A DNA stretch of 64,000 nt, from assembly GCA_947567625.1 (NCBI GenBank), contig CANONN010000007.1:4803-68802 (forward strand), given 5' to 3'. Under the pieces are notes generated by a model. It saw nothing but the letters and a program-made list of their open reading frames with translations, made no database searches and was not told the origin of the DNA. The position numbers and the translations under genes are program-made. This DNA is from an uncultured Roseburia sp. GTDB taxonomy: Bacteria; Bacillota; Clostridia; Lachnospirales; Lachnospiraceae. Below are positions 17,686-45,552 of the stretch, piece after piece (within the stretch, counting starts at the first letter, position 1; every line of letters starts with the position of its first letter).

Positions 17686-17715
17686 CAAGATTGAAAATTA
17701 AAATTTTCAATCTTG
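17686..17715. promoter_or_regulatory. Perfect 14-bp inverted repeat (2-nt spacer) between the LytTR gene and the next ORF
   Basis: CAAGATTGAAAATT-aa-AATTTTCAATCTTG. No T tract follows, so it is operator-like rather than a classical terminator. Confidence 0.5.
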
Positions 17716-17769
17716 GCGAAAAGAGCAAATGCGAACGTTGTTCGCAAAGCAGAAATGAGGAGGAGAATT

Positions 17770-18438
17770 ATGCGAATTACCAATCAAATGTTAAGTGCGT
17801 CTGCGAGAAAGGCGGGGATTCCGCTCGAGGGCAATTCACTCTTGGATTACCTCAATAAAGACGACGGGGGCAACCTGCTCGACAGTTTAAATGGCAGCAA
17901 CAACTTAAATCAGTCGGTGTCCTCGGTCTACAAAAACAACTATGACAAGATTCAAAAGGCGGCGGAAGCATATGAGAAGCAGGCCAAAAGCTTAGCGGAG
18001 TCGGGAGAGGGGTCGATCTGGGCAAAGGCCAATGAGACGGGAGATCTGTCTGCGGTTTATGACAATATCAAAAGCCTGGTGGACAAATATAACAGCACGC
18101 TTGAGGCGGTGAGAAAGACGCCGGATTCGTTAAACACCTATTACATGCAGATGTTTACGCAGGGGGCTGCCGACCGCAAAGAGGTGCTTGAGGCGGCGGG
18201 CGTTACCGTCCAGAAGGACGGCACGTTAAAGCTGGATGAGGACAAGATGAAAGCCGCTGATCTGAAAGCGCTCGAGAAAGCTTTTGGCAGTGGCAGCGAT
18301 TTTCTGGCGCGGACCGGTTTTGTGGCTGCGCGGGCGGCAGATCACGCAAAGACAAGCGCCGAGAGCGTTACCAGCCAATACACAGCAAAGGGCAGCTTAA
18401 TCACTGCCGAGACCAGCAGGTACGATTTTCTTGGATAA
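17770..18438 (+). CDS. Hypothetical protein (222 aa)
   Basis: ATG 17770 is preceded by GGAGGAG with a 6-nt spacer; the ORF-track start 17713 is less likely. Hydrophilic, Ala/Lys/Ser-rich, with no recognisable domain. Confidence 0.55.
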   Translation: MRITNQMLSASARKAGIPLEGNSLLDYLNKDDGGNLLDSLNGSNNLNQSVSSVYKNNYDKIQKAAEAYEKQAKSLAESGEGSIWAKANETGDLSAVYDNIKSLVDKYNSTLEAVRKTPDSLNTYYMQMFTQGAADRKEVLEAAGVTVQKDGTLKLDEDKMKAADLKALEKAFGSGSDFLARTGFVAARAADHAKTSAESVTSQYTAKGSLITAETSRYDFLG

Positions 18439-20867: not shown

Positions 20868-21608
20868 ATGAGGAAAACAATGCTTGAATTGAGGAATATA
20901 GGTTTTCATACCGATGATGGAAAGGATATTTTAACGGAAGTCAATCTTGTTTTGGATGAAAAGATTGTTGTGATCACAGGGCCAAACGGCGGCGGCAAAT
21001 CTACGCTTGCAAAGATTATTGCGGGTATCATACAGCCTACGGAGGGAACCATATGGCTCGATGGCATGGATATCACGCACATGTCGGTGACGGAGAGAGC
21101 GCGCGTGGGCGTCAGTCTCGCATTTCAGCAGCCGGTGCGCTTTAAAGGACTTACGGTCAAAGATTTGATCACGATTGCCGCGGGGCGCGATCTGACGTTA
21201 AACGAGGCGTGCAAATATCTGTCCGAGGTGGGGCTGTGCGCCAAAGATTATATTGAGCGCGAATTAAATCAAAGCCTTTCCGGCGGCGAGATGAAGCGCA
21301 TTGAGATCGCGATGATTTTGGCCAGAGATTCCAAGTTTTCCGTTTTTGACGAGCCGGAGGCCGGTATCGATCTCTGGAGCTTTGGCAATTTAATTCATGT
21401 CTTTGAAAAGATGCACAGAGAAACGAAGGGCACGATTCTGATTATCAGCCATCAGGAGCGTATTTTAAATATTGCCGACAAGATCATCTATTTAAAAAAC
21501 GGCAGCGTGGAGCGGTATGGTTCCAGAGAAGAGATTCTGCCGGACTTGCTGCATGACACGGCAAAGGCGGCGGGCTGTAATATATTAATGGACAAACTGG
21601 AGGGCTAA
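20868..21608 (+). CDS. sufC: Fe-S cluster assembly ATPase SufC-like
   Basis: Walker A 'GPNGGGKST', signature 'LSGGEMKR' and Walker B 'FSVFDEPEAGID'. 246 aa with no TM partner. Alternative start ATG 20880. Confidence 0.8.
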   Translation: MRKTMLELRNIGFHTDDGKDILTEVNLVLDEKIVVITGPNGGGKSTLAKIIAGIIQPTEGTIWLDGMDITHMSVTERARVGVSLAFQQPVRFKGLTVKDLITIAAGRDLTLNEACKYLSEVGLCAKDYIERELNQSLSGGEMKRIEIAMILARDSKFSVFDEPEAGIDLWSFGNLIHVFEKMHRETKGTILIISHQERILNIADKIIYLKNGSVERYGSREEILPDLLHDTAKAAGCNILMDKLEG

Positions 21609-21612
21609 TCAT

Positions 21613-22530
21613 ATGGATGCAATACAAAAGAATCTATTACATGAGGTGGCAGAGCTTGACGCGCTTCCGGTTGGAGCTTACAATATCCGCGTCAACGGTG
21701 AGAGCAGCGCCCGCAATACTACTGCCAATATTGATATTGTAAGCAAGACGGATAAGTCCGGTATTGATATCATTATTAAGCCGAACACGGTAAACGAGAG
21801 CGTGCATATTCCGGTCGTGCTCTCGCAGAGTGGTCTCAAAGAAATGGTCTACAATGATTTTTATATCGGGGAGAACAGTGATGTGACGATCGTTGCCGGC
21901 TGCGGTATCCACAACTGCGGCGCGGGGGACAGCAGCCATGAGGGCTTGCACCGGTTTTTTGTGGGAAAAAATGCCAGAGTGCGCTATGTGGAAAAGCATT
22001 ACGGAGAAGGCTCGGGAGAGGGAAAACGCGTCATGAACCCTATGACGGAGATTCATCTGGAGGAGGGCGCGTATGCCAAAATGGAGATGACGCAGATCTC
22101 CGGCATCGACGATACGATACGCAAAACGACCGCCGTTTTGGCCGCAGGCGCCACCCTGGAGGTGCAGGAAAAGGTTCTCACCGACGGAGAGCAGAACGCG
22201 GTTTCCGATTTTACGGCGGATTTGAACGGGGAGGGATGCAGCTGCAATATCGTCAGCCGCACGGTGGCGAAGGAAAACAGCACCCAGCATTTTGCCAGCA
22301 CCCTAAACGGCAACGCCGCCTGCTCGGGCCATACGGAGTGCGATTCGATCATTATGGATTCGGCCCGGGTTTCGGCGAGCCCGAACCTCACCGCGGCCAA
22401 CATCGACGCCAGCCTGATTCACGAGGCCGCCATCGGCAAAATTGCCGGCGAGCAGCTGTTAAAGCTGATGACGCTGGGGCTGACCGAGGAGGAAGCGGAA
22501 GAGCAGATTGTCAACGGATTTTTGAAATAG
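21613..22530 (+). CDS. SufB/SufD-family Fe-S assembly protein
   Basis: Beta-helix-type sequence with the C-terminal 'LIHEAAIGKIAGEQLLKLMTLGLTEEEAEEQIVNGFL' SufB/D hallmark. It follows sufC by 4 nt. Confidence 0.8.
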   Translation: MDAIQKNLLHEVAELDALPVGAYNIRVNGESSARNTTANIDIVSKTDKSGIDIIIKPNTVNESVHIPVVLSQSGLKEMVYNDFYIGENSDVTIVAGCGIHNCGAGDSSHEGLHRFFVGKNARVRYVEKHYGEGSGEGKRVMNPMTEIHLEEGAYAKMEMTQISGIDDTIRKTTAVLAAGATLEVQEKVLTDGEQNAVSDFTADLNGEGCSCNIVSRTVAKENSTQHFASTLNGNAACSGHTECDSIIMDSARVSASPNLTAANIDASLIHEAAIGKIAGEQLLKLMTLGLTEEEAEEQIVNGFLK

Positions 22531-22571
22531 CAGGTTAAAAATCGTAACCGTTCAATTGTTTACCTGTTACT

Positions 22572-22623
22572 AAAAATCGGATGAAACATATGGTTTGTCA
22601 CCGTATGTTTCATCCGATTTTTT
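22572..22623 (+). terminator. Strong rho-independent (potentially bidirectional) terminator
   Basis: AAAAATCGGATGAAACATA-n13-TATGTTTCATCCGATTTTTT. The 16-bp perfect stem is flanked by A and T tracts. Confidence 0.9.
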
Positions 22624-22653
22624 ACGCTGGAAGAAAAGCATTATCTGCGGTTT

Positions 22654-23640
22654 GTGATGAAACAGAGCCAATGCTTTGAAGCTGTTTTGACTGGAAAAGG
22701 GATGATTCTGGAGAAAGAATGGGAAGAAAGATACCAAGAGGCGGCCGTCGGTGTGGATACCGCCAGATTAAACCGTTATCTCTGCAAACAGGTGCGCAGG
22801 CATTTGGATAAGTTGTCTGCGGAGAAAGCAACCGGTTTTTCCGTCGCCGAACGGGCATACCGTTACGGAGATCACGGTATTTATCTTTCCACAAAAGAAA
22901 AACGGAAAAGAATTTTTATCCTCCTGACGGATAACAATCAATATAAGAGGCAGATTTATATTGATTTAAAGCCCGACGAGCGAAATCTCGTTATACATGT
23001 TCCGGTAGAAACTGCGGTCAGGCGGCATGAGGATTATCACGCCAGGATAGGGCTGGCATCGGGTATGCGGCATATGCTTGTCACGGACAAGGGACATGTC
23101 TATGGCGAACGGTACGGTGAATATCAATTTGCCCTGGCGGAATATGTGCGCAAAGGGCGGTCGGTTTATCAGAAAAACCGACGCAATAATCCCGGACGCA
23201 AAAAGTACTATGCCGGGAAAGCGAGACTGGAGGCGGCGCTGCACAGCTATATCAACGGCGAAATCAATCGGCTGCTGGAAACGGAGATGCCGGAGGAAAT
23301 CTTTTTGCCGAAGCTGCCGCAAAACACCAGGGCGGGCGTTTATAAGGTATATAACAATGCTGCCCATATGTGGCAGAGGGGCTATATCAAAAAGCGGCTT
23401 ACGCAGAAGTGTCAGGAGAATTCGATTCGGCTGGTCGAGGTGTTCGCAAAGAACATCGGCAAAGAATGTAGTGTGTGTGGAGCGACCGGCAAAAAGGAAA
23501 AAGAGTTTTTTGTCTGCCAGGCATGCGGTGCGCAGTTGCCCGAGAGGGAGAATGTCGCAAGAAACGCGTTACTGCGTGGAAGAGCACAGAGAGTATCTGT
23601 GTCTGCAAATGTTACAGACACAGAAATCAAAATCGAATAA
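22654..23640 (+). CDS. TnpB-like (IS200/IS605 OrfB family) protein with substituted RuvC catalytic triad; candidate nuclease-dead derivative
   Basis: The order of blocks matches TnpB. The RuvC-I block is 'RIGLASGMRHMLVTDKG' versus the usual GIDLG. The RuvC-II block is 'EEIFLPKL' versus IVxEDL. The zinc ribbon is 'CSVCG...CQACG'. The RuvC-III block is 'PERENVARNALLRG' versus (D/H)xDxNAAxNI. 328 aa, intact ORF, no tnpA nearby. Confidence 0.7.
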   Translation: MMKQSQCFEAVLTGKGMILEKEWEERYQEAAVGVDTARLNRYLCKQVRRHLDKLSAEKATGFSVAERAYRYGDHGIYLSTKEKRKRIFILLTDNNQYKRQIYIDLKPDERNLVIHVPVETAVRRHEDYHARIGLASGMRHMLVTDKGHVYGERYGEYQFALAEYVRKGRSVYQKNRRNNPGRKKYYAGKARLEAALHSYINGEINRLLETEMPEEIFLPKLPQNTRAGVYKVYNNAAHMWQRGYIKKRLTQKCQENSIRLVEVFAKNIGKECSVCGATGKKEKEFFVCQACGAQLPERENVARNALLRGRAQRVSVSANVTDTEIKIE

Positions 23641-23959
23641 GTTCATTCAGAAAGTTTGTGCAGATGGATGGAAAAGCCGTCAAGTAGATACTCTATCATA
23701 AGGTATTCTGTTCTACCGGGGAAGAACCGGACTGCAAAACGTTTCTTTTGATAAAAAGGCGGGAGTTATTTTTCTGCCAGACGGCATTAGAAGCCGGCCA
23801 TGCCGGGTATTGGGTATGCCAGGACCTGTGGGAACTTGAAACGGAAGTAGTTTATCGTTTGAAGAAGTACCGGGAGCGAAGCGGGTAATAATGTTATTCC
23901 GCAGCATCAACGGAGAGCTTGATGTCCAATATTCCATATTATAAGATTGGAAAACAAAT

Positions 23960-24253
23960 ATGAAACGATACAGAAAGAAAGAGATGCAAGAGACAGTGGA
24001 AACACTGTTGAAAGCAAATGACACAATCGGTACGGCCAGAAAAACGAATTCTGCGGAATATCTGGTGGAGCTGCTTACCCAGTGCCAGGAGTCAGCGATT
24101 CTACTTGGAACGTACCTTGATACGTTAGGGGACAAGTATCATTATCTTGTAGAAGTACTGGAAGATTACTGCGAGGCGGTTTATCAGATCAGTGTCAGCC
24201 TTGCGGATGAGAGCCAATGCAGGAAAATAGTAAAAAAATACAAAAGCAGTTGA
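23960..24253 (+). CDS. Small helical hypothetical protein (97 aa), possibly the N-terminal part of the next gene via a -1 shift
   Basis: ATG 23960. It overlaps ORF 24217..26352 by 37 nt, and an A7 run (24232-24238) lies in the overlap. Confidence 0.5.
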   Translation: MKRYRKKEMQETVETLLKANDTIGTARKTNSAEYLVELLTQCQESAILLGTYLDTLGDKYHYLVEVLEDYCEAVYQISVSLADESQCRKIVKKYKSS

Positions 24254-26352
24254 CAGGACTGATCAATCATATACGTTATGATTTGCCGGGGGACAGAACG
24301 GAGGTCGTATTTCTCCCTTATAAAGCTTCTATGTGGGATTCTCTGGAAAGTGTGTGGAAAGCGGCGGTCTCTGACGAACAGACGGACGCTTATGTCATTC
24401 CGATTCCGTATTACGATAAAAATCCAGATGGGAGTTTTCGGGAAATGCATTATGAGGGGAATTTATATCCCGCGTATGTGCCTGTGACGCATTATGATGA
24501 TTATAATTTTGTGGAAAGAACCCCGGACGTAATTTTTATACATAATCCGTATGATAATACAAATTATGTGACGAGCGTACATCCTTTTTTTTATTCCGAT
24601 CATTTGAAACAGTATACGGATAAGTTAGTGTATATACCTTATTTTATATTGCGGGAGTTAAATCCACAAAACCGGGTAGAAATAGAGAATATCAAACATT
24701 TTATTACGACGCCCGCTGTGATTCATGCCGACAGAGTCATCGTGCAATCGGAGAACATGCGGCAGATCTATATTGGCGTTATGATGGAATACACCGGAAA
24801 TGACACTGCCAGCAGGCGTTATTGGGAAGAAAAGATCTTGGGGCTTGGCTCCCCGAAAGTGGACAAGGTCTTAAATACCGGAAAAGAGGATATCGAGATA
24901 CCAGGGGAATGGCTGACCGTGATACAGAAGCCGGATGGGAGCAGCAAGAAAATTGTTTTATATAATACAAGTATCACGGCTTTACTCGAGCACAATGAGC
25001 TGATGCTGGTAAAAATGCAGGACGTGTTTCGTATCTTTCAAAAAAACAGAGACGAGATTGCACTGCTGTGGCGGCCTCATCCGCTGATTGAGAGTACATT
25101 GCGGTCTATGCGGCCGCAATTGTGGGAGGAGTATCAAAGAATCCGAGACCAGTATCTTGCGGATGGATGGGGAATCTATGACGACTCGGCAGAGCTTGAC
25201 CGGGCGGTAATCTTGAGTGACGCCTATTATGGAGACAAAAGCAGCGTAGTAGAACTATACAGAAAAACGGCAAAGGGAATCGTTATACAAAAAGTGTATC
25301 AATCTAAGATACAGGAAAATTTTATTATGGCTTCCCAGGTGAACGATCATGAGAACAGATATATTTTGTCGAAACAGGGAGTTTTGTACCAGTTTGATGA
25401 AAACACCAGGGGTTTTACGGCGCTAAAGGTATTTTGTGAAGATACAGGCGAAGAGGGAACTTATAAATATATGGAATTATACGGAGAAAAGATCGTACTT
25501 TTTCCGTACAGGACGTCCCGTATTTTATTTTATGATTTGGCAAACGATTTATTGACGGATGCTATCATTGCGGAGCGACAGAGTGTTTATCGCGCGTATT
25601 ACAGATATGAAAATACGGTCTATCTGATTGGGTGTAAGGACAAGCAGACAGCGGATAGGAAAGTTGACTTGCAAACGTTGCAGACGCAGGCTATGCCCCA
25701 ATGGCTGGACCGCATACACGCGCAGCTTGGATTAGAAGCAGACTACAATTTGACCATGATGGGAATCGGGAAACTGCAAATCATAGATTTTAAGGGCTAC
25801 CTTCCGCTTACCGTTCCCGATCATATTGCTGTAATTGATTTTAGGACAGAAGAGATCAAAGTAATCAAAGTTGGAGACCGCGGGATTCGATATAATACGG
25901 TGTGCTATGACGGCAATGCGTTTTGGCTCACCGGGGATAAAACGTGTATTGTGCGTTGGTGCGATAAGAAATCTGCGATCACTACCTTTGAAAATTTTCA
26001 GCCAACATTGCCGGACTCCAAAAGATCAAAGTTTATGGATGCACTTTTTGCCAAGTCAGTATATTGGGACGGGTATGTGTATTTTGCTCCGCTGTTAGCG
26101 CAGGAAATCGTTTGTATTCATACAGAGAGTGGCGCGCTGCGCGTGCTCGATCAGACCGAACCGTTGGGAGCCTGTTTTGAAATCGGTCTGTTTGAGGGGG
26201 CAGTTGTCGCTTTTGAAGAAGTTTGGAACGATAGCTGCTGCGAAAAAGTAATCTGCCATTCTTTTGGCACGGACATAGAATTTAAGAGTTTAAACGAGGA
26301 ATATCAAAAGGTAAGAGCCATGATTGGTGAAAAATGCGCAAGTGCAATATAA
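24217..26352 (+). CDS. TagB/TagF-like (CDP-glycerol glycerophosphotransferase family) protein with a long C-terminal beta-rich domain; tentative
   Basis: 'VVFLPYKASMWDSLESVWKAA...AYVIPIPYYDKNPDG...DVIFIHNPYDNTNYVTSV...LVYIPYF...VIVQSENM' resembles Clostridial proteins annotated in this family. Recognised by eye only. Confidence 0.45.
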   Translation: MQENSKKIQKQLTGLINHIRYDLPGDRTEVVFLPYKASMWDSLESVWKAAVSDEQTDAYVIPIPYYDKNPDGSFREMHYEGNLYPAYVPVTHYDDYNFVERTPDVIFIHNPYDNTNYVTSVHPFFYSDHLKQYTDKLVYIPYFILRELNPQNRVEIENIKHFITTPAVIHADRVIVQSENMRQIYIGVMMEYTGNDTASRRYWEEKILGLGSPKVDKVLNTGKEDIEIPGEWLTVIQKPDGSSKKIVLYNTSITALLEHNELMLVKMQDVFRIFQKNRDEIALLWRPHPLIESTLRSMRPQLWEEYQRIRDQYLADGWGIYDDSAELDRAVILSDAYYGDKSSVVELYRKTAKGIVIQKVYQSKIQENFIMASQVNDHENRYILSKQGVLYQFDENTRGFTALKVFCEDTGEEGTYKYMELYGEKIVLFPYRTSRILFYDLANDLLTDAIIAERQSVYRAYYRYENTVYLIGCKDKQTADRKVDLQTLQTQAMPQWLDRIHAQLGLEADYNLTMMGIGKLQIIDFKGYLPLTVPDHIAVIDFRTEEIKVIKVGDRGIRYNTVCYDGNAFWLTGDKTCIVRWCDKKSAITTFENFQPTLPDSKRSKFMDALFAKSVYWDGYVYFAPLLAQEIVCIHTESGALRVLDQTEPLGACFEIGLFEGAVVAFEEVWNDSCCEKVICHSFGTDIEFKSLNEEYQKVRAMIGEKCASAI

Positions 26353-26373
26353 AGGATGGAGGGAGAAGCCGCT

Positions 26374-26805
26374 ATGATAGAGGAAGTAAGAAAAAAGAGC
26401 AAATTGTTGGCGCTCATTATCAGAAATCACCACGAATGTGAGGGTGTGGATTTTTTGACCCCAAACGAGTATTCACAGCAGGTGGCTTATATGCATCACC
26501 CGCAAGGGAAGGTGATTGATGCGCATGTACATAATCTTGTGCACAGAAATGTGGTTTTGACACAGGAAGTACTGGTGATAAAAAAGGGCAAATTGCGTGT
26601 CGATTTTTATGATGAATATGAAGATTATCTGGAAAGCAGAATAATCGGTGCGGGAGATGTCATTTTACTTGTCTCAGGAGGACATGGGTTTAAGGTATTG
26701 GAAGAGCTGGAAATGATCGAGGTCAAGCAGGGGCCGTATGCCGGGGGAGATGATAAGAAGAGGTTTGCGGGAATATCAGATGAGGAGCTTATATTAAAGG
26801 ACTGA
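26374..26805 (+). CDS. Cupin-fold protein (WbuC / sugar-ketoisomerase-like)
   Basis: ATG 26374 follows GGAGGGAG. 'KVIDAHVHN...EVLVIKKGKLRVDFYD...GDVILLVSGGHGF' is a cupin beta-barrel pattern typical of glycan loci. Confidence 0.5.
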   Translation: MIEEVRKKSKLLALIIRNHHECEGVDFLTPNEYSQQVAYMHHPQGKVIDAHVHNLVHRNVVLTQEVLVIKKGKLRVDFYDEYEDYLESRIIGAGDVILLVSGGHGFKVLEELEMIEVKQGPYAGGDDKKRFAGISDEELILKD

Positions 26806-26852
26806 CAAGAGAGAATCAGCGAAGTTTGAATTCATGATTTGGAGAGGGCGCT

Positions 26853-28064
26853 ATGAGAGTATCGATCATAGATGAAACATTAAAAATATATAGAGAAAAC
26901 AGGGTTATTATATTTGGAGCTTCCGCTTCGGGGAAAGGTGTATACAGCATCTTCGAGTCGTTTCAGATCAAAACAGCATTTTTTGTTGATAACGACAGGG
27001 AGAAGTGGGGCAGCCAATGCTGTGGTTTGCCTGTATGCGCCCCGGATGATTTGTCAAAGCAAAAAGACAGCTTTGTGGTATAGATTGCAAGTACGGCGGA
27101 AGACGAGATAGCCGCCCAATTGAGGGAAATGGGAATCGATTGCTATATCATGTATTCGGAAGCGATACACAGATTGATCAACCTGAACCGGTATCAATAT
27201 TTTAAACAGGACGGCAGTAATTATGCATATTATATGCAGCATGTATACGAGTCTTTGGCTGTGCCTAAGATTCAGTATTTGTGGGGGGATGTCATTACCA
27301 ACAATATGTATTCCCCGGAAGAAAGCATATGGCTTTGTATGCCGCCTAAAACGGGTGATTATACGGTGATGAACTCATTGACCCGCGCCGGCAAACGATA
27401 TGTGAATTTTATACATTCCGAATATGCAATGACAAAGAAGTTACAAAAGGCTGTCGGCGGGCGTAAGATCAAAGTGATCTGTGGAGTGAGGGAGCCGATT
27501 GCACAGAATTTGTCATTGATCTATCAGTTGGAGCAGGATGGGCTGCTGTGGAATATGAAGGAAGATTGGCAGGACGGCGGAGATGTTGCAGCGATATTGC
27601 GCCGGCTGTTGGAAAATGAAATTCATTATATAAAAAAAGAACATTATGACTCAGATTTACTCGAAATGAAAGACATGCAATATTATCCGCATACCTACTT
27701 CATTCAAAACTTTTTACAACAGGAATTTAAAAGAAATCTTGGCATAGATATTCTGGCGCATCCATTTGACGTGGAAGAAGGCTATGGGATTGTGAAAGAG
27801 GGAAATATTGAGATCTTTTTGTATCAATTGGAAAGATTAAATGTGGTTTATGAAAAATTATTTGAATTTTTAGGCATTGCGGGAAGCAGATTAGTCACTG
27901 GAAACAGCGCCGAAGACAAATGGTACAACAGATATTACAGAGAGGCAAAAAAGAATATCTCTCTTCCGGCGGATTATATTGACTGGAGCTATGAATGTGA
28001 ATTTACGAAGCATTTTTACAGCGGGCGCCAGATAGAAGAATATATGGCAGCATGGAAAAAATAG
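26853..28064 (+). pseudogene. Rossmann-like module + sulfotransferase-like domain gene interrupted by one in-frame TAG (27081-27083)
   Basis: ORFs 26853..27083 and 27120..28064 are in the same frame. Translation across the stop reads '...QKDSFVV*IASTAEDEIAAQLREMGIDCYIM', a continuous domain. Downstream, 'MPPKTGDYTVMNSL' and 'GVREPIAQNLS' resemble the sulfotransferase PAPS-binding 5'-PSB/3'-PB motifs. Confidence 0.6.
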
Positions 28065-28099
28065 AGATGGATAAGTGAAGAGGAATAAAGGAGAACGAG

Positions 28100-29221
28100 A
28101 TGGGGTTTATACCGGTAAACGAACCATTATTGAATGGCAATGAAAAGAAATATTTATGCGAATGTATTGACAGCGGCTGGATATCTTCGGAAGGGCCGTT
28201 TGTCAAAGAATTTGAAAAAAAGATGAGCGCTGTTGTGGATCGGAAATATGGCATCGCTGTTTCTAACGGCACGGCGGCTTTGGAAGTTGCGGTACAGGCG
28301 CTGGGAATCGGCGAAGGGGATGAAGTGATTATGCCCACATTTACCATTATATCATGTGCGATGGCGGTGACAAAGACGGGGGCCACTCCCGTCTTAGTGG
28401 ACAGTGACCGGTTTACCTGGAATATGAATGTCGATGAGATAGAGGCGAAAATCACTTCCCGGACGAAGGCAATTATGGTGGTACATCTGTACGGGCTGCC
28501 GGTTGACATGGATAAGGTATTGGAGCTTGCAGAAAAATACCATTTAAAAGTGATCGAGGATGCGGCGGAAATGCACGGGCAGACCTATAAAGGCAGAATG
28601 TGCGGCAGCTTTGGAGATATCAGCACTTTTAGCTTTTATCCCAATAAGCATATCACAACGGGCGAAGGCGGTATGATTGTCACGGATGATGAGGAGCTTG
28701 CAGAAAAATGCCGTATGTATCGCAATCTCTGTTTTCAAAAAGACGTCAGGTATGTGCACAACGAGATTGGCGATAATTATCGTTTTACAAATTTGCAGGC
28801 GGCGGTAGGGCTGGCACAGCTGGAGAGACTGGATGAGTTTGTAGCCAAAAAGCGGGAAATCGGCGCTTATTATACGAGCCATCTGAGAGAACTCGAGGGT
28901 TTGATACTGCCTGTAGAGGAGACGGACAGCGCAAAAAATATCTATTGGGTATACGCAATCGTACTGGGAGAAAATATAAAATTATCCAATCGGGAAATGA
29001 CAAAGCGGTTGGGGGAGCGTGGAATTGGCACGCGGACATTCTTCTGGTGTATGCATGAGCAGCCGGTCTATCAAAAAATGGGGCTGTTTCAGGGAGAACA
29101 TTATAAAAACGCGGAGTATTTGGCAAGAAAAGGTTTTTATATTCCAAGCGGCCTCGCATTGACGCGGGAGCAGATGGATGTGGTGGTGGAAGAGCTGACA
29201 GCAATCGTAAAAGGACAGTGA
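28100..29221 (+). CDS. DegT/DnrJ/EryC1/StrS-family PLP-dependent sugar aminotransferase
   Basis: 'EKKYLCECIDSGWISSEGPFVKEFE', 'AVSNGTAALEVAV' and 'FSFYPNKHITTGEGGMIVT' (PLP lysine). Confidence 0.92.
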   Translation: MGFIPVNEPLLNGNEKKYLCECIDSGWISSEGPFVKEFEKKMSAVVDRKYGIAVSNGTAALEVAVQALGIGEGDEVIMPTFTIISCAMAVTKTGATPVLVDSDRFTWNMNVDEIEAKITSRTKAIMVVHLYGLPVDMDKVLELAEKYHLKVIEDAAEMHGQTYKGRMCGSFGDISTFSFYPNKHITTGEGGMIVTDDEELAEKCRMYRNLCFQKDVRYVHNEIGDNYRFTNLQAAVGLAQLERLDEFVAKKREIGAYYTSHLRELEGLILPVEETDSAKNIYWVYAIVLGENIKLSNREMTKRLGERGIGTRTFFWCMHEQPVYQKMGLFQGEHYKNAEYLARKGFYIPSGLALTREQMDVVVEELTAIVKGQ

Positions 29222-29232
29222 GGAGGCCGTTT

Positions 29233-29991
29233 ATGGAAGTTTTTCAGGATTATGCCTATTATTACAATGCATTTTATCAGGATAAAGATTACAAAGGGGA
29301 AGCGGCACAGATCGATTTGCTGTTAAAAAAATACGGTGAAAATGTAAAATCGGTCATCAGTTTCGGGTGCGGTACGGGCAGACATGAGTGCGAATTATAT
29401 AACATGGGATATCAGTGCAGCGGGATTGACATGAGTGAGCTGATGATAGAGATTGCCAGGAAGCATGTATATGAAGAGGGGAAAAATATAGATTTTTTTG
29501 TCTCTGACATCAGAGAGCACAAGTCGCAGGTAAAGTTTGACGCGGTTATTTCACTATTTCATGTCATGAGTTACCAGATTGGCAACCGGGATATTCTGGA
29601 CGCATTTTCCGCGGCGAAAAACTGCCTAAGGCGCGGCGGTTTATTCTTATTTGATGTCTGGTATGGCCCGGGTGTGCTGAGTGATAAACCGGCAGTCCGG
29701 GTGCGCGAGATAGACAATGAGGAAAATAAGCTGGTGCGGATTGCGAGGCCCGTCATGCATGACAAGGAAAATATGGTGGATGTGTGCTATGAGGTACTTG
29801 TGATCAATCAAAAAACGAATATTGTAAAAAAAATTGAGGAAACCCATCATATGCGCTACTTTTTTAGGCCGGAATTGGAATATTTTTTGCAGCAGGCCGG
29901 TTTTGAACTGATCTGTAATTTGGATTGTAATACCTTGGAAGAAACCGATTATGGCTCATGGACGAGTTATTTTATTGCGCGGGCGGTATAA
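29233..29991 (+). CDS. Class I SAM-dependent methyltransferase, TylM1/DesVI-like (aminosugar N-methyltransferase type)
   Basis: ATG 29233 follows AGGAGG. 'YYYNAFYQDKDYKGEAAQIDLLLKKYG' N-terminal signature and 'ISFGCGTGRH' SAM loop. It follows the aminotransferase directly. Confidence 0.65.
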   Translation: MEVFQDYAYYYNAFYQDKDYKGEAAQIDLLLKKYGENVKSVISFGCGTGRHECELYNMGYQCSGIDMSELMIEIARKHVYEEGKNIDFFVSDIREHKSQVKFDAVISLFHVMSYQIGNRDILDAFSAAKNCLRRGGLFLFDVWYGPGVLSDKPAVRVREIDNEENKLVRIARPVMHDKENMVDVCYEVLVINQKTNIVKKIEETHHMRYFFRPELEYFLQQAGFELICNLDCNTLEETDYGSWTSYFIARAV

Positions 29992-37690: not shown

Positions 37691-38920
37691 ATGAAATATT
37701 TGGCAATCTGTATACCAAATTATAACCGGATTGATAAATTAAGGCGATTGTTGGAGGAAACGGTCACACAGATTCTAAGGGATTCCCTGGAAGATGAGGT
37801 CGAATTATGTGTCAGCGATGATCATTCGGCAGAGGACCCCTCTGATCTGATCAGGGAACTAAAAGAAGTATATCCGCAGATATTCTTTCGCTATGCAAGA
37901 AATGAAGAGAATCGGGGGATGGATTACAATTTCTTAAAGAGCGTCATATTGGCGGAAAGCGAATACTGCTGGATTATTGGCAATGATGATCTGCCAACGG
38001 AATATGGGATACAGAAAGTAGTAGCGCAATTGAAAAATTGCCATAGCAAACCCGATCTTTTGGTTACACCGTTTGATATTTATACGGATGAGGAAATGGT
38101 GCGCGGTACGATATGGCCGCTGGGCGATACGCGCGGCCAGGCATTGCAGTTTGACACGTCAGACCAGGAGGAATACAAAAAACTTCTTCTGTCCGTACAG
38201 CATAACAGTGGCTTATTCGGGTTTTTGTCGAATACGGTTTTCCGCAGAGAAAAGTGGTTGGAATATCAGGGCAGATTTCAGGACAAGTTAAATACTATTT
38301 TCATCCAAATGTATATGAATATCCAGACGTTAGGGGATGGCGCAGTATATTTCTATGCTCCTGAAAAAGTGATTAAAAATTATGCCGATGACGCAACCAA
38401 TGAGTCGGTAAAAAGAATCTGCAAAATTCTTTTTGGCTTAAACGGAGTGGTGGAATACTTTTTTTCCGGGACCGTGGGGGAGAGACTCAAAAAAGTAATA
38501 GTGGATGCTTATATCAGCGGGAGTGTGTGGGAGCTGCCGGAATGTGATCCTGATAAGGAAAGGGTTAGGAAAATAGAAACAGATAAAAATAAGCTGTATA
38601 AAAAATATTTTATCAGCCCGGATAATAGAAAACATTTTTTTGCAGGCAAAGAGATTGTCATATTTGGTGCAGGCGACTATGGCAGGAAAGTTTTTCGTGA
38701 GCTGCAAGATTATAATGTTACCGTGGCCGGAATTATGGACTCCGATCATGCAAAAAGGGGGCAGACGTTTTACGGCCATATCATCAATTTACCGGAACAG
38801 ATGCTTGGTACATGCCGGGAAAAGGGATGGACGATCGTAGTGGCAAATCATTTTCATCTGCCGGACATGGTGGATTTGCTTTTAAAAAATGAGGTGGAAT
38901 ATATTGCGTTGATTTGTTAA
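37691..38920 (+). CDS. GT2-family glycosyltransferase + C-terminal Rossmann-like module
   Basis: 'LAICIPNYNRIDKLRRLL...CVSDDHSAED' GT2 signature. C-terminal 'GKEIVIFGAGDYGRKVFREL...GIMDSDHAKRGQ'. Confidence 0.75.
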   Translation: MKYLAICIPNYNRIDKLRRLLEETVTQILRDSLEDEVELCVSDDHSAEDPSDLIRELKEVYPQIFFRYARNEENRGMDYNFLKSVILAESEYCWIIGNDDLPTEYGIQKVVAQLKNCHSKPDLLVTPFDIYTDEEMVRGTIWPLGDTRGQALQFDTSDQEEYKKLLLSVQHNSGLFGFLSNTVFRREKWLEYQGRFQDKLNTIFIQMYMNIQTLGDGAVYFYAPEKVIKNYADDATNESVKRICKILFGLNGVVEYFFSGTVGERLKKVIVDAYISGSVWELPECDPDKERVRKIETDKNKLYKKYFISPDNRKHFFAGKEIVIFGAGDYGRKVFRELQDYNVTVAGIMDSDHAKRGQTFYGHIINLPEQMLGTCREKGWTIVVANHFHLPDMVDLLLKNEVEYIALIC

Positions 38921-38990
38921 GCGCCGGGGAGGACGGCCGGTGACAAAGTTGCGGTGCACAGTAAGGCCGATGTGGTTGTAGTTTAACATT

Positions 38991-40118
38991 GTGGGAATGG
39001 AGAAATCAATGATATTTAAAAATAGTACCTATGAAAGTTTGAAAGAGAAGATAGGAAACAGAAAGATCATTCAATTCGGGGCATCCTCTGCGTGGCATTA
39101 TTACAGCAAGGTTTTCCCTGATATCGTGGAGACGGTTGTAGACCATACGGCATTTATTGTAGATAATGACGCGGCAAAGCAGGGAACGGAGCTTGTGATT
39201 GCCGATCGCAGGCTGTCGGTAGTGCCGGTAGAGCGTATCGCAGAGGCAAATGATTTTGTCATCTTGATTACGGTCAGCCTGGCTTACCAAAAAAGCATAT
39301 GCGAGCAGTTAATCGAAATGCGTCTGCCGGAACATACAGAGTGCTATTCCCTGCCGCTTATGACATTCCGCACACAAAATGCGGATAATACCTGTGTAGC
39401 GGAATACTTTAGCAGGCATACGGTTCCGGTGAATGTGCCAAAAATCCACAGCTTTTGGTTCAGCGGGGAGGAAAAGCCGGATTTATTTAAGCGCTGTTTG
39501 GAGAGTTGGCATAAGTATTGCCCTGAATTTGAGATTATAGAGTGGAGTACAAAAAACTATGACGTGACAAAGAATCCGTATATGCGAGAAGCGTTTGAGC
39601 ATAAAAAGTGGGCATTTGTATCAGATTATGTGAGATTGGATGTTTTGTATCAATATGGCGGCATTTACATGGACATGGATGTCGAGTTAGTGGCGTCTCT
39701 TGCGCCATTGCTGAACGCGGACAGTTTTTTCTGTCGGCAGGAGGACGGCCTTCTCGAACTGGGTTCCGGCTTTGGTGTGCGCGCAAAAGACCCGCTGATC
39801 GGGGAAATGCTGGCTACTTATAAAAACCGCAGGTTGATTATGGAGAACGGTGCAACGGATATGACGCCGCAGCCGGAATGGCTGAGCAGTATTTTAACAA
39901 AATACGGCTTTAGGAAATGCCATGATTCGCAGATTATCAATGACAGGCTGATATTATCAAACGATTATATTACTTGTTCGACGGACGGCAATCCAAAGGA
40001 GACGGCAAAATTAGGAGTACACTGGCATAACGGGAGCTGGCTCGGGGAAAAGGACAGAAAATTGATTAAGGATTCTCTTTCCGTCAGAGAGAAATTGCTG
40101 GAGGATTACTTTAAGTAA
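38991..40118 (+). CDS. Rossmann-like module + GT32-type (DXD, Gly_transf_sug) glycosyltransferase
   Basis: 'RKIIQFGASSAW...FIVDNDAAKQG', then 'PKIHSFWFSGEEKP' and 'SDYVRLDVLYQYGGIYMDMDVE'. The start could be GTG 38991, ATG 38997 or ATG 39009. Confidence 0.75.
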   Translation: MGMEKSMIFKNSTYESLKEKIGNRKIIQFGASSAWHYYSKVFPDIVETVVDHTAFIVDNDAAKQGTELVIADRRLSVVPVERIAEANDFVILITVSLAYQKSICEQLIEMRLPEHTECYSLPLMTFRTQNADNTCVAEYFSRHTVPVNVPKIHSFWFSGEEKPDLFKRCLESWHKYCPEFEIIEWSTKNYDVTKNPYMREAFEHKKWAFVSDYVRLDVLYQYGGIYMDMDVELVASLAPLLNADSFFCRQEDGLLELGSGFGVRAKDPLIGEMLATYKNRRLIMENGATDMTPQPEWLSSILTKYGFRKCHDSQIINDRLILSNDYITCSTDGNPKETAKLGVHWHNGSWLGEKDRKLIKDSLSVREKLLEDYFK

Positions 40119-44676: not shown

Positions 44677-45552
44677 GTGAGGTATACTATTTTTAAAGAA
44701 CAAGAGAAAAAAATATATACAGATGGGAAATTTATATTTCCAGTCTATGATTTTGGGGCGAAAGCAGTGTTTCGCATAGAAACTGTGCGCAAATACTTTA
44801 TCAGCGATGTACTGGGTGTTCCGGCAGAACAGATACGGTCAGTCCGGTTGCTCAGCCCGTATCTAAGACGCAGGAGAGAGCGGGAGAAACAGGGCATCCT
44901 TGATGTGTTGATGGAGATGAATGACAATGGCAAGATCAATATGGAGATACAGACGAAGCCCTATAAATATTGGGATAAAAGAAATCTTTTTTATCTGTCC
45001 AAAATATATACGGATGACCTGGATGTAGGGCAGCATTATGAAAAATTAAAGAGAACCGTCTGTATCAGCCTGTTAGGTTTTAATTTGACAGAAAGGGAGG
45101 AGTATCATAGCAGATATCTTTTACGGGATGATCAGGGCAACATTTTTTCTGATATCTTGGAATTACATATCATTGAGCTAAAGAAGAAGTTAAACGGGAA
45201 AGAGCCGGTCGATGACTGGATCAGATTTTTCAATGCCAAAAGTGAGGAGGAGATCGATATGATAGAGACAAAAAACCCGGGAATACAAGAAGCCATCAGG
45301 GAATTAAAAAGAATCAGCCTTCCGCGTCTGGTGCGATCTTATTATGAGGACGCATTGAAAATGCGCCGTGACAGGTGGGCGAGGGAAGAGTATGTCAGAG
45401 ACGAAGGCATCAGTATCGGAAAGGAACAGGGTATCAGTTTGGCGAAAGTGGAGGCCGTAGAACAGGTTATGGCGGAGTTTCATGTACCGTTAGAGAAAGC
45501 CTGTGAGGTGGTTCAAATCTCCATAGAGAAATACCGTGAGGCAAAAAAATAG
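44677..45552 (+). mobile_element. Rpn-family / PD-(D/E)xK nuclease 'putative transposase' (PDDEXK_2)
   Basis: 'FPVYDFGAKAVF', 'ILDVLMEMNDNGKINMEIQTKPYKYWDKRNLFYLSKIY' (D...E.Q catalytic core) and 'ELHIIEL'. It is preceded by 340 nt of AT-rich non-coding DNA. Confidence 0.75.

Follow-up and report, generated by a model that had tools for sequence, protein, structure and literature searches.

A TnpB-derived open reading frame beside a glycan-biosynthesis island

The window analyzed here is a 64,000-nucleotide (64-kb) stretch of contig CANONN010000007.1 from an uncultured Roseburia species, and its subject is an open reading frame (ORF) at 22654–23640 on the forward strand that a preliminary description, made from the letters alone, had taken for an intact TnpB-like gene resembling those of the TldRs. 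TldRs are nuclease-dead TnpBs with adjacent guide RNAs that repress promoters (Wiegand et al., 10.1101/2023.11.30.569447; Xiao et al., 10.64898/2026.09.22.753285). The ORF, the longest in a remnant that starts slightly further upstream, encodes 328 amino acids and is TnpB-derived, as had been proposed: PF07282 (Cas12f1-like TNB) matches it above the gathering cutoff (E-value 3e-7; 30.9 bits, cutoff 26.3), and NF040570 (guided_TnpB) aligns its residues 68–307 with profile positions 129–388 (E-value 6e-10), at a score below the cutoff for that profile (39 versus 100 bits). A profile of the family built from its alignment (A1) matches Cas12f/TnpB chains with an E-value of 5e-5; direct matches to PDB sequences are confined to the Cas12f zinc-finger/RuvC-III region, and a phmmer search of the RuvC-I/II segment against PDB sequences returned no TnpB match. 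By sequence homology the ORF belongs to the TnpB/Cas12 superfamily, and the four cysteines of its zinc ribbon, which had been reported as intact, are invariant across the family (columns C392/C395/C408/C411 of the closest homologue, P0001). The features around the ORF are given below; A4 is an alignment of 54 relatives, and L001 is the contig that carries P0001.

22572–22625, forward strand: intrinsic terminator 3' of a sufBD-like gene, with a 23-bp perfect stem followed by a T-run (from folding; common to L001 50–137)
22620–22623, forward strand: TTTT microhomology at a deletion junction (from blastn of L001 against the window and the junction sequences)
22624–23640, forward strand: dead-TnpB remnant, about codons 111–448 of the 448-residue orthologue (tblastn places residues 110–448 at 22621–23637)
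23056–23058, forward strand: RuvC-I position, codon A135; Asp in active relatives (A4 column)
23308–23310, forward strand: RuvC-II position, codon P219; Glu in active relatives (A4 column)
23467–23526, forward strand: intact CxxC...CxxC zinc finger of the TNB domain, C272, C275, C288 and C291 (PF07282 match)
23545–23547, forward strand: RuvC-III position, codon R298, with E297 and E299 on either side; Asp in active relatives (A4 column)
23641–23940, forward strand: conserved structured RNA, a putative derived omega-RNA/guide-RNA scaffold, intact and beginning at the stop codon; covariance-model core at 23781–23940
23941–23959, forward strand: would-be TnpB-type guide segment ATAAGATTGGAAAACAAAT, assigned by its position relative to the scaffold end

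The window copy lacks the 5' end of the gene

The 1,478 homologues that were found are 411–448 amino acids long. The closest, P0001, has 448 residues and is 97% identical to the window ORF, which aligns to its residues 121–448. By blastn, contig L001 matches the window in two blocks, L001 50–137 at 22536–22623 and L001 663–7683 at 22620–29622 (98.4% identity), and the window is without L001 138–662, a 525-bp deletion flanked by two T-run microhomologies (...GATTTTTT followed by GTGTGC..., and ...CTAATTTT followed by ACGCC...). Lost with it are about 200 bp of upstream control region, the ribosome-binding site (RBS), the ATG and about 110 codons. In-frame homology of the remnant extends 5' of the GTG to 22620–22624, and by this comparison the apparent GTG start is an internal Val codon. 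The view of the ORF as intact and compact, with only ~130 amino acids before RuvC-I, thus gives way to that of a gene whose 5' part has been deleted.

What was lost is among the most conserved parts of the family. For P0001, AlphaFold with a deeper alignment gave a pLDDT of 91.8 and a pTM of 0.80, where a first run with a shallow alignment had been poor (pLDDT 61). Superposed on ISDra2 TnpB (8h1j), the model has a TM score of 0.68 and a root mean square deviation of 6.5 Å; the other top matches are all TnpB, Cas12f or Fanzor, and the full-length family protein is predicted to have the complete TnpB fold. The missing N-terminus corresponds in this model to the first WED strand (residues 4–13) and REC helices 19–106, about 60% of REC. 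P0001 has a complete WED-REC-RuvC-TNB fold and the window copy, starting at P0001 residue 121, does not. When the missing N-terminal domain was sought elsewhere in the window by tblastn, only a weak and probably spurious antisense match was obtained, at 38880–39251 on the reverse strand, antisense to a glycosyltransferase gene (26–28% identity, E-value about 0.01).

The strong terminator that had been noted upstream of the ORF is borne out by folding (−35 kcal/mol, z = −9.6, none of 200 shuffled sequences folding as well). The deletion junction falls in its T-run, and the remnant begins ~30 nt past it, with no promoter-like site and no evident Shine-Dalgarno sequence between the terminator and the window ORF. 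An ancestral 525-bp deletion between these T-runs has thus brought the dead-TnpB gene, from about codon 110 onward, directly behind the upstream terminator. With the start codon, the RBS, the first WED strand and most of REC gone, a TldR-like exaptation is not supported for the window copy itself.

The shortened gene is not peculiar to this contig. Public gene calls for the truncated allele begin at the ATG at 22702 and give a 312-residue protein (P0271) identical to the window ORF from Met17 onward, from which two variants differ by 1–2 residues. The allele is common: it was seen on 15 contigs, drawn from no fewer than two sample series, and in each case behind the same aminotransferase-SufC-SufBD genes. 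Nine of the truncated-allele contigs were checked and all have one and the same junction, so the deletion was a single ancestral event. Sequencing error as the cause of the truncation is ruled out by this identical junction in independent assemblies. Between the remnant and L001 there are 16 synonymous and only 8 non-synonymous changes, which together with the open frame speaks against a long neutral history; the deletion is therefore probably recent relative to the divergence of the strains.

One further shortened protein was seen in another lineage: P0122, of 380 residues, has an in-frame internal deletion of ~55 residues (between ...YPGYTVQNE and ILRFVMKQSQ...) whose 3' end nearly coincides with the endpoint of the window deletion, and the region may be a deletion hotspot.

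Loss of the RuvC triad throughout the family

An exhaustive profile search gave 1,390 clusters at 50% identity for the wider superfamily, and the triad columns were read out of A4, whose 54 sequences are a spread of those clusters. Among relatives of no more than 30% identity the motifs are IGI[D]KGY, IVx[E]DLT and DA[D]xNA, and their bracketed letters fall in exactly the columns that hold A135, P219 and R298 in the window, whereby the substitutions proposed for the first two positions are upheld and the third, for which the preliminary description had left a choice of E or R, is settled as R298. In the profile alignment R298 is also paired with D401 of AsCas12f (NADYNAARN), which we take to be the RuvC-III Asp of that enzyme. 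At these positions the core family and the sister clusters closest to it show A/V/Y/S/H, P/A/T/L and R/K/P/H, and they keep the CCCC zinc finger. As read from this alignment, the nuclease triad is lost clade-wide, with non-acidic residues at all three RuvC positions. Comparison of the family profile with oppF-TldR by hhalign was not significant (probability 0.14%), and the bridging alignment to D/E/D-retaining relatives was used in its place; the RuvC-II register of P219 nonetheless agrees between the two.

A structured RNA follows the gene

Directly after the stop codon, in every lineage, lies an RNA element of ~290 nt composed of invariant blocks (ACGGCATTAGAAG, GTATTGGGTATGCCAGGACC, GGGAGCGAAGC and TGACCAATATGCCTTATT) with variable hairpins between them and a conserved 3' end, ...CCAATATTCCATATT. 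RNAalifold applied to alignment A2 predicts 26 consensus pairs, 14 of them with compensatory double changes. A covariance model of the core (R1) detects one copy in the window, at 23781–23940 (111 bits, the window sequence being part of the model), and, in 60 of 62 loci outside the model set, a single copy 3' of the gene and on its strand, while a search of Rfam with window positions 21500–25500 at E ≤ 1 gave no match for it. In about half of the loci at most 60 nt separate the scaffold end from the start codon that follows (19 nt in the window), and the RNA is therefore part of the operon transcript. In the window the would-be guide doubles as leader and RBS region for the first island gene, whose ATG is at 23960.

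The origin of the pair was sought among the nearest relatives that retain D/E/D, P0170 and P0159, which directly follow genes combining a MerR helix-turn-helix with a resolvase, the IS607 arrangement. The best match of R1 in all three such loci lies on the tnpB strand, at or just after the 3' end of the gene (20, 20 and 8.5 bits), and the blocks ACGG, CCAAGAC, GAGCGAA and GCCUU are common to the family RNA and these matches. The family descends from IS607-type TnpBs that keep D/E/D, and the weak but positionally specific R1 matches suggest that its RNA element is a derived omega-RNA. The family has the same overall fold as the IS607 TnpBs but differs from them in the absence of tnpA, ends and triad, in its fixed genomic position, and in a scaffold that is longer and strongly conserved.

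Two variations on the RNA region were seen in other loci. In L002–L009 and L019 (for example at L002 6620–6800) the stretch from the RNA element to the first glycan gene holds a tandem repeat with a 58-nt unit (GGAGCGAAAGCCCGCAGCGAGATGAGCGAAGCGAAATCGAGCGTCACGGCGGAGTAAA), which is preceded by a hairpin with a 22-bp stem and ranges from 2 to at least 6 copies among contigs encoding the identical protein P0104. Two loci, L067 (1786–2111) and L100 (7442–7808), have two tandem, weaker copies of the RNA core 3' of the gene, reminiscent of the omega-RNA arrays of other inactivated TnpBs.

The gene heads glycan clusters across the Lachnospiraceae

The glycan island that had been described downstream of the ORF is present, at ~24.0–44.4 kb, and contains genes for a DegT aminotransferase, GT1, GT2 and GT4 glycosyltransferases, FkbM and other methyltransferases, NKWYS and Caps_synth.

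23960–26352, forward strand: first island gene, 797 residues in L001, L102 and L103; in the window split into ORFs of 97 and 711 residues
24000–44400, forward strand: glycan-biosynthesis island, co-directional and of lower GC content (0.40–0.46)
26853–28064, forward strand: third island gene, 403 residues with C2185-like_N and NKWYS in relatives; in the window split into 76 and 314 residues

In every lineage examined the dead-TnpB gene comes first and is followed by a glycan cluster with DegT aminotransferase, WbqC, glycosyltransferases, methyltransferases and radical-SAM enzymes. When one downstream ORF was sampled in each of 20 further diverse loci, 14 had sugar-pathway domains and six had no Pfam match, none pointing elsewhere. 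When species-representative genomes were scanned, 421 loci came to light. Practically all belong to Lachnospiraceae (Acetatifactor, Schaedlerella, Sporofaciens, Dorea, Blautia, Hungatella and many metagenome-assembled genomes, MAGs, from mouse gut), and several genomes carry two or three. Schaedlerella arabinosiphila DSM 106076, Acetatifactor muris DSM 23669 and Sporofaciens musculi are among the cultured bacteria with an intact locus.

Could the gene be no more than a dying remnant of a selfish IS200/IS605/IS607 insertion sequence (IS), lying beside the island by chance and never having had a host function? The nearest D/E/D-retaining relatives do sit in IS607 units, family members are annotated as "transposase" in the sources, and the window copy is truncated. 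Nevertheless, the window ORF has no tnpA, recombinase or IS ends beside it, its neighbors being suf genes and glycan genes, and no recombinase homologue was found anywhere in the 64-kb window; the preliminary description was right in seeing neither a Y1 or serine transposase partner nor IS ends. No tnpA was found at the family loci examined either, so that the partner transposase and ends by which an IS200/IS605/IS607 element is known are missing. In all lineages examined the gene keeps its place at the head of a glycan cluster, the family is strongly conserved despite the clade-wide loss of the triad (74% mean column identity, 127 invariant columns), and the gene is coupled to invertible promoters, as described below. 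We consider an origin of this kind, with no host function, extremely improbable. At the level of the family, RuvC is inactivated, tnpA and IS ends are gone and a conserved tie to new genes has arisen, all as in TldRs, and it is well supported that the intact family is a nuclease-dead TnpB, without tnpA or IS ends, recruited beside accessory glycan genes.

Other genes near the island may be mentioned here. The window island is closed by a gene of the PDDEXK_2 "transposase" family (44677–45552, E-value 1.5e-38), and in L010–L014 a PDDEXK_2-like gene comes first after the RNA element. About 4 kb upstream of the locus, a 241-residue ORF (17713–18438) has a marginal match to FliD_C, the flagellar cap (E-value 3e-6).

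Invertible promoters upstream of the intact genes

Contigs that encode the same protein differ by an inversion upstream of the gene, of 3.5 kb between L002 and L008 and of 2.2 kb between L010 and L012. The boundaries are exact 25–31-bp repeats with the core TTCGCAGAA-TATCCAA-TTCTGCGAA, of which the gene-proximal copy ends 26–39 nt before the ATG, precisely the point at which several assemblies break off. Different loci share the 9-bp arms, and each has its own 7-nt spacer. The invertible segment comes in two sizes, 1.4–3.9 kb, with a gene for a tyrosine recombinase of the phage-integrase type, and about 190–450 bp. The recombinase is present in 42 of the 76 loci with enough flanking sequence, co-directional with the dead-TnpB gene in 29 and opposite in 13.

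Within the small segments, exactly one perfect TTGACA-17-TATAAT was found in 10 of 11, pointing toward the gene (ON) in four and away from it (OFF) in six. The large segments have the same arrangement, ON in L008 and L010 and OFF in L002, L012 and L015. A second class of inverton, on a more distant branch, has paired ...CATTACGAAAAAGTATACTTTTTCGTAATGG... repeats about 130–150 bp apart that enclose a TTGAC[T/G]-17-TAGAAT promoter, again seen in both orientations. From these comparisons the gene is the first cistron of variable glycan-biosynthesis operons, downstream of an invertible promoter with the sigma-70 consensus.

The window itself has no such switch. Its upstream region is deleted, and searches of the window for the 25-bp recombination core, both as such and in degenerate form, gave no match. 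Contig L001 has a single palindrome of the second-class type, within the 525 bp that the window has lost. Neither the recombinase nor its inverted-repeat site, seen together in the 42 loci mentioned, is present in the window or in L001.

L048 (3972–4374) and L061 (5522–5924), from one Blautia MAG, are near-identical 403-bp invertons with the perfect promoter in opposite orientations; they represent separate loci or else alternative states of a single locus that were assembled apart. Where one genome has two loci (L068 and L078, L064 and L088), repeat arms or spacers differ between them, for example TTTCGTAGAATTTAACTTTCTACGAAA versus ...CAGATTAAGGCAATCT..., as would be expected if each switch must recombine only with itself.

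Decay of the island head in the window lineage

Besides the truncation of the dead-TnpB gene, the first genes of the island carry lesions in the sublineage of the window. The first island gene contains a poly-A tract (24232–24238) of seven residues (A7) in the window, L101, L104, L105 and L107, which shifts the frame, and of eight (A8), giving the 797-residue protein, in the otherwise near-identical L102, L103, L106 and L108; the difference could be plain decay or a slipped-strand on/off switch. In the third island gene a CAG to TAG change at 27081–27083 is shared by the window, L101 and L105, and the codon is intact in L102, L103 and L001. Deletion of the upstream control region together with successive lesions downstream is as expected for a silenced and decaying operon head. 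A 17-nt indel was also noted between these genes, at window 26802 versus L001 4846–4863, at the end of a 149-residue ORF that has 143 residues in relatives.

These data have to be set against the possibility that the 328-residue (or 312-residue) product is a functional, naturally compact dead TnpB, a "mini-TldR" that uses the downstream RNA to regulate the island. It would be consistent with this that the truncated ORF is uninterrupted and is still open on 15 contigs, which encode three slightly different versions of the protein, that its differences from the full-length orthologue are mostly synonymous (16 versus 8), and that the RNA element is intact in the window. These points count against our view of the window copy as a dead relic, as does the finding that the first 37 nt of L001 differ from the 3' end of the window sufBD gene (window 22490–22530), left of the shared terminator; the two strains appear not to be collinear there, and the left flank of the island seems to differ between full-length and truncated-allele strains. 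Described TldRs are also shortened, though C-terminally, and a residual role for the shortened product, or for the RNA alone, may persist. Against a functional compact protein stand the loss of promoter region, RBS and start codon and the position of the ORF ~30 nt past a very strong terminator; the loss of the first WED strand and ~60% of REC, among the most conserved parts of the family; and the frameshift and nonsense codon in adjacent island genes of the same sublineage. Moreover, in no other lineage is a short form the normal state (100 loci examined). On balance we regard a working mini-TldR as improbable, and the window ORF as very probably a non-functional, 5'-truncated allele of a domesticated nuclease-dead TnpB gene.

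The idea of a TldR-like exaptation in a glycan-island context, with which the preliminary description ended, therefore stands for the family, where triad loss, the complete fold, absence of tnpA, the linked RNA and the position before glycan genes and behind invertible promoters all speak for it, and is not supported for the window copy, which is 5'-truncated at the head of a decaying island.

How the intact pair may act

For the intact loci we propose that, when the promoter flips to ON, the dead TnpB would be co-expressed with the glycan genes and would bind the omega-RNA-derived scaffold, and that the protein-RNA complex may be an RNA-directed regulator tied to phase-variable surface-glycan expression. 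Binding to DNA in the manner of TldRs would be the most likely mode of action and action in cis on the operon leader a less likely one. The window strain has lost this module along with its promoter, and its island head is in decay.

The analogy with TldRs gains from the guide-RNA-like scaffold found beside the gene in all but two of the 62 loci. The feature by which TldRs are defined, a guide that matches a promoter target next to a target-adjacent motif (TAM), was sought and not found in a search that was limited to about ±6 kb per locus, with TAM and guide length not defined. Within each locus, 11-mer seeds gave 26 matches where 13.6 were expected, which is chance level. Guides of 16 nt, with up to three mismatches allowed, had no target in the sister loci of eight multi-copy genomes, and the window guide, searched against the window at the same length and tolerance, had no second match. 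An exact-match metagenome scan for AATGAGCCGTGCAGTC, a guide conserved in several species, found 104 stretches, again chance level, whose only recurrent context was inside an unrelated coding region. Together with the faintness of the R1 matches at the 3' ends of active tnpB genes, these results weigh against the proposed mechanism.

They also lend some weight to a different mechanism, in which the pair of dead TnpB and RNA acts in cis on the operon transcript and not on DNA, for instance by processive antitermination or by control of translation initiation of the first glycan gene, and in which the pair would play the part that UpxY/leader or EAR-type elements have in long polysaccharide operons. 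The operon transcript includes the RNA, the segment expected to serve as guide is at the same time leader and RBS, the searches gave no DNA target within ~6 kb on either side, and long glycan operons (~20 kb) commonly need antitermination. However, we know of no precedent for TnpB-family proteins that act on RNA polymerase or on translation, the predicted fold keeps the full DNA-binding architecture of TnpB, the scaffold occupies the omega-RNA position with weak homology to the omega-RNA regions of active relatives, and the span of the target searches was narrow. We consider action on the transcript unlikely, if less so than a functional role for the truncated protein.

Taking the evidence as a whole, we have good confidence that the best explanation is a truncated relic in the window that derives from an RNA-linked family of dead TnpBs heading phase-variable glycan operons.

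Relation to known systems

The described TldR clades are associated with fliC, with oppF and, in Clostridia, with csrA/flagellin genes (10.1101/2023.11.30.569447; 10.64898/2026.09.22.753285). The glycan family resembles them in being TnpB-derived, in the loss of the RuvC triad, tnpA and IS ends, in a clade-specific tie to non-transposon genes of the cell surface, and in a guide-RNA-like scaffold directly downstream. It differs in keeping the C-terminal zinc finger and RuvC-III region, both of which many TldRs have lost, in its IS607 derivation, in being the first cistron under invertible promoters, and in that no guide-matching promoter target was found within the span searched. Signature peptides of the glycan family are absent from those supplementary datasets of the described TldR clades that were searched, its gene context is different, and the family is not one of the fliC, oppF and csrA/flagellin clades. 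The Clostridial csrA/flagellin group was considered as an identity for the family and rejected, since context and origin differ.

A counterpart may already have been seen. Altae-Tran et al. (PNAS 2023, PMC10691335) reported fully inactivated TnpBs with a phage-integrase-like recombinase upstream "in a seemingly random orientation" and inverted repeats around, the recombinase sometimes being missing while the site stays; they grouped these with transposon associations and took the repeats for attachment sites. At the level of description this matches the glycan family, and the main text of that paper makes no link to glycan operons, to a promoter in the segment or to ON/OFF phase variation. The window lineage differs from the description in having neither recombinase nor site. 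Among the papers searched, nothing relevant was found on TnpB with phase variation or polysaccharide, or on invertible polysaccharide loci of Lachnospiraceae.

The nearest functional analogues of the intact loci are capsular and flagellar switches of other bacteria. In Bacteroides, phase-variable polysaccharide loci have invertible promoters and the regulators UpxY/UpxZ as first genes, and in Salmonella hin-fljBA the recombinase gene lies inside the invertible segment. The loci described here share with these a repeat-flanked promoter flipped by a site-specific recombinase, whose gene lies in the segment in hin and in many of our loci; several loci per genome with distinct repeats; and a first gene that would be a regulator co-expressed with genes for surface structures. 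They differ in host clade and in the nature of that first gene, which is a dead homologue of an RNA-guided nuclease accompanied by an RNA and not a NusG-like factor or a protein repressor; in addition, cross-locus repression, sought here through guide matches, was not found.

The case carries a caution, in that an apparently intact and compact ORF was a decapitated allele, recognizable as such only through comparison with relatives; the interest lies in the family architecture to which the relic points rather than in the window ORF. To our knowledge, TldRs are the only natural CRISPRi-like transcription factors known outside CRISPR. Few nuclease-dead TnpB clades have an assigned role, and the glycan family is a large one, with its 421 loci and the many clusters of the wider superfamily. 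Little regulation of glycans has been described in Lachnospiraceae, and exact recombination sites, ON and OFF promoter orientations, an RNA covariance model and a high-confidence protein model are now available as experimental handles.

The family ties the relic of an RNA-guided nuclease to two themes of gut colonization, the diversity of surface glycans and phase variation by DNA inversion. It is possible, though we hold this only tentatively and with more doubt than belief, that the intact family is a large and so far uncharacterized class of IS607-TnpB-derived RNA-directed regulators, hard-wired as the first cistron of phase-variable glycan operons in gut Lachnospiraceae, which set the hierarchy among a cell's glycan loci or feed back on their own operon. 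If so, they would be the RNA-programmed equivalent of UpxZ in Bacteroides or of FljA in Salmonella.

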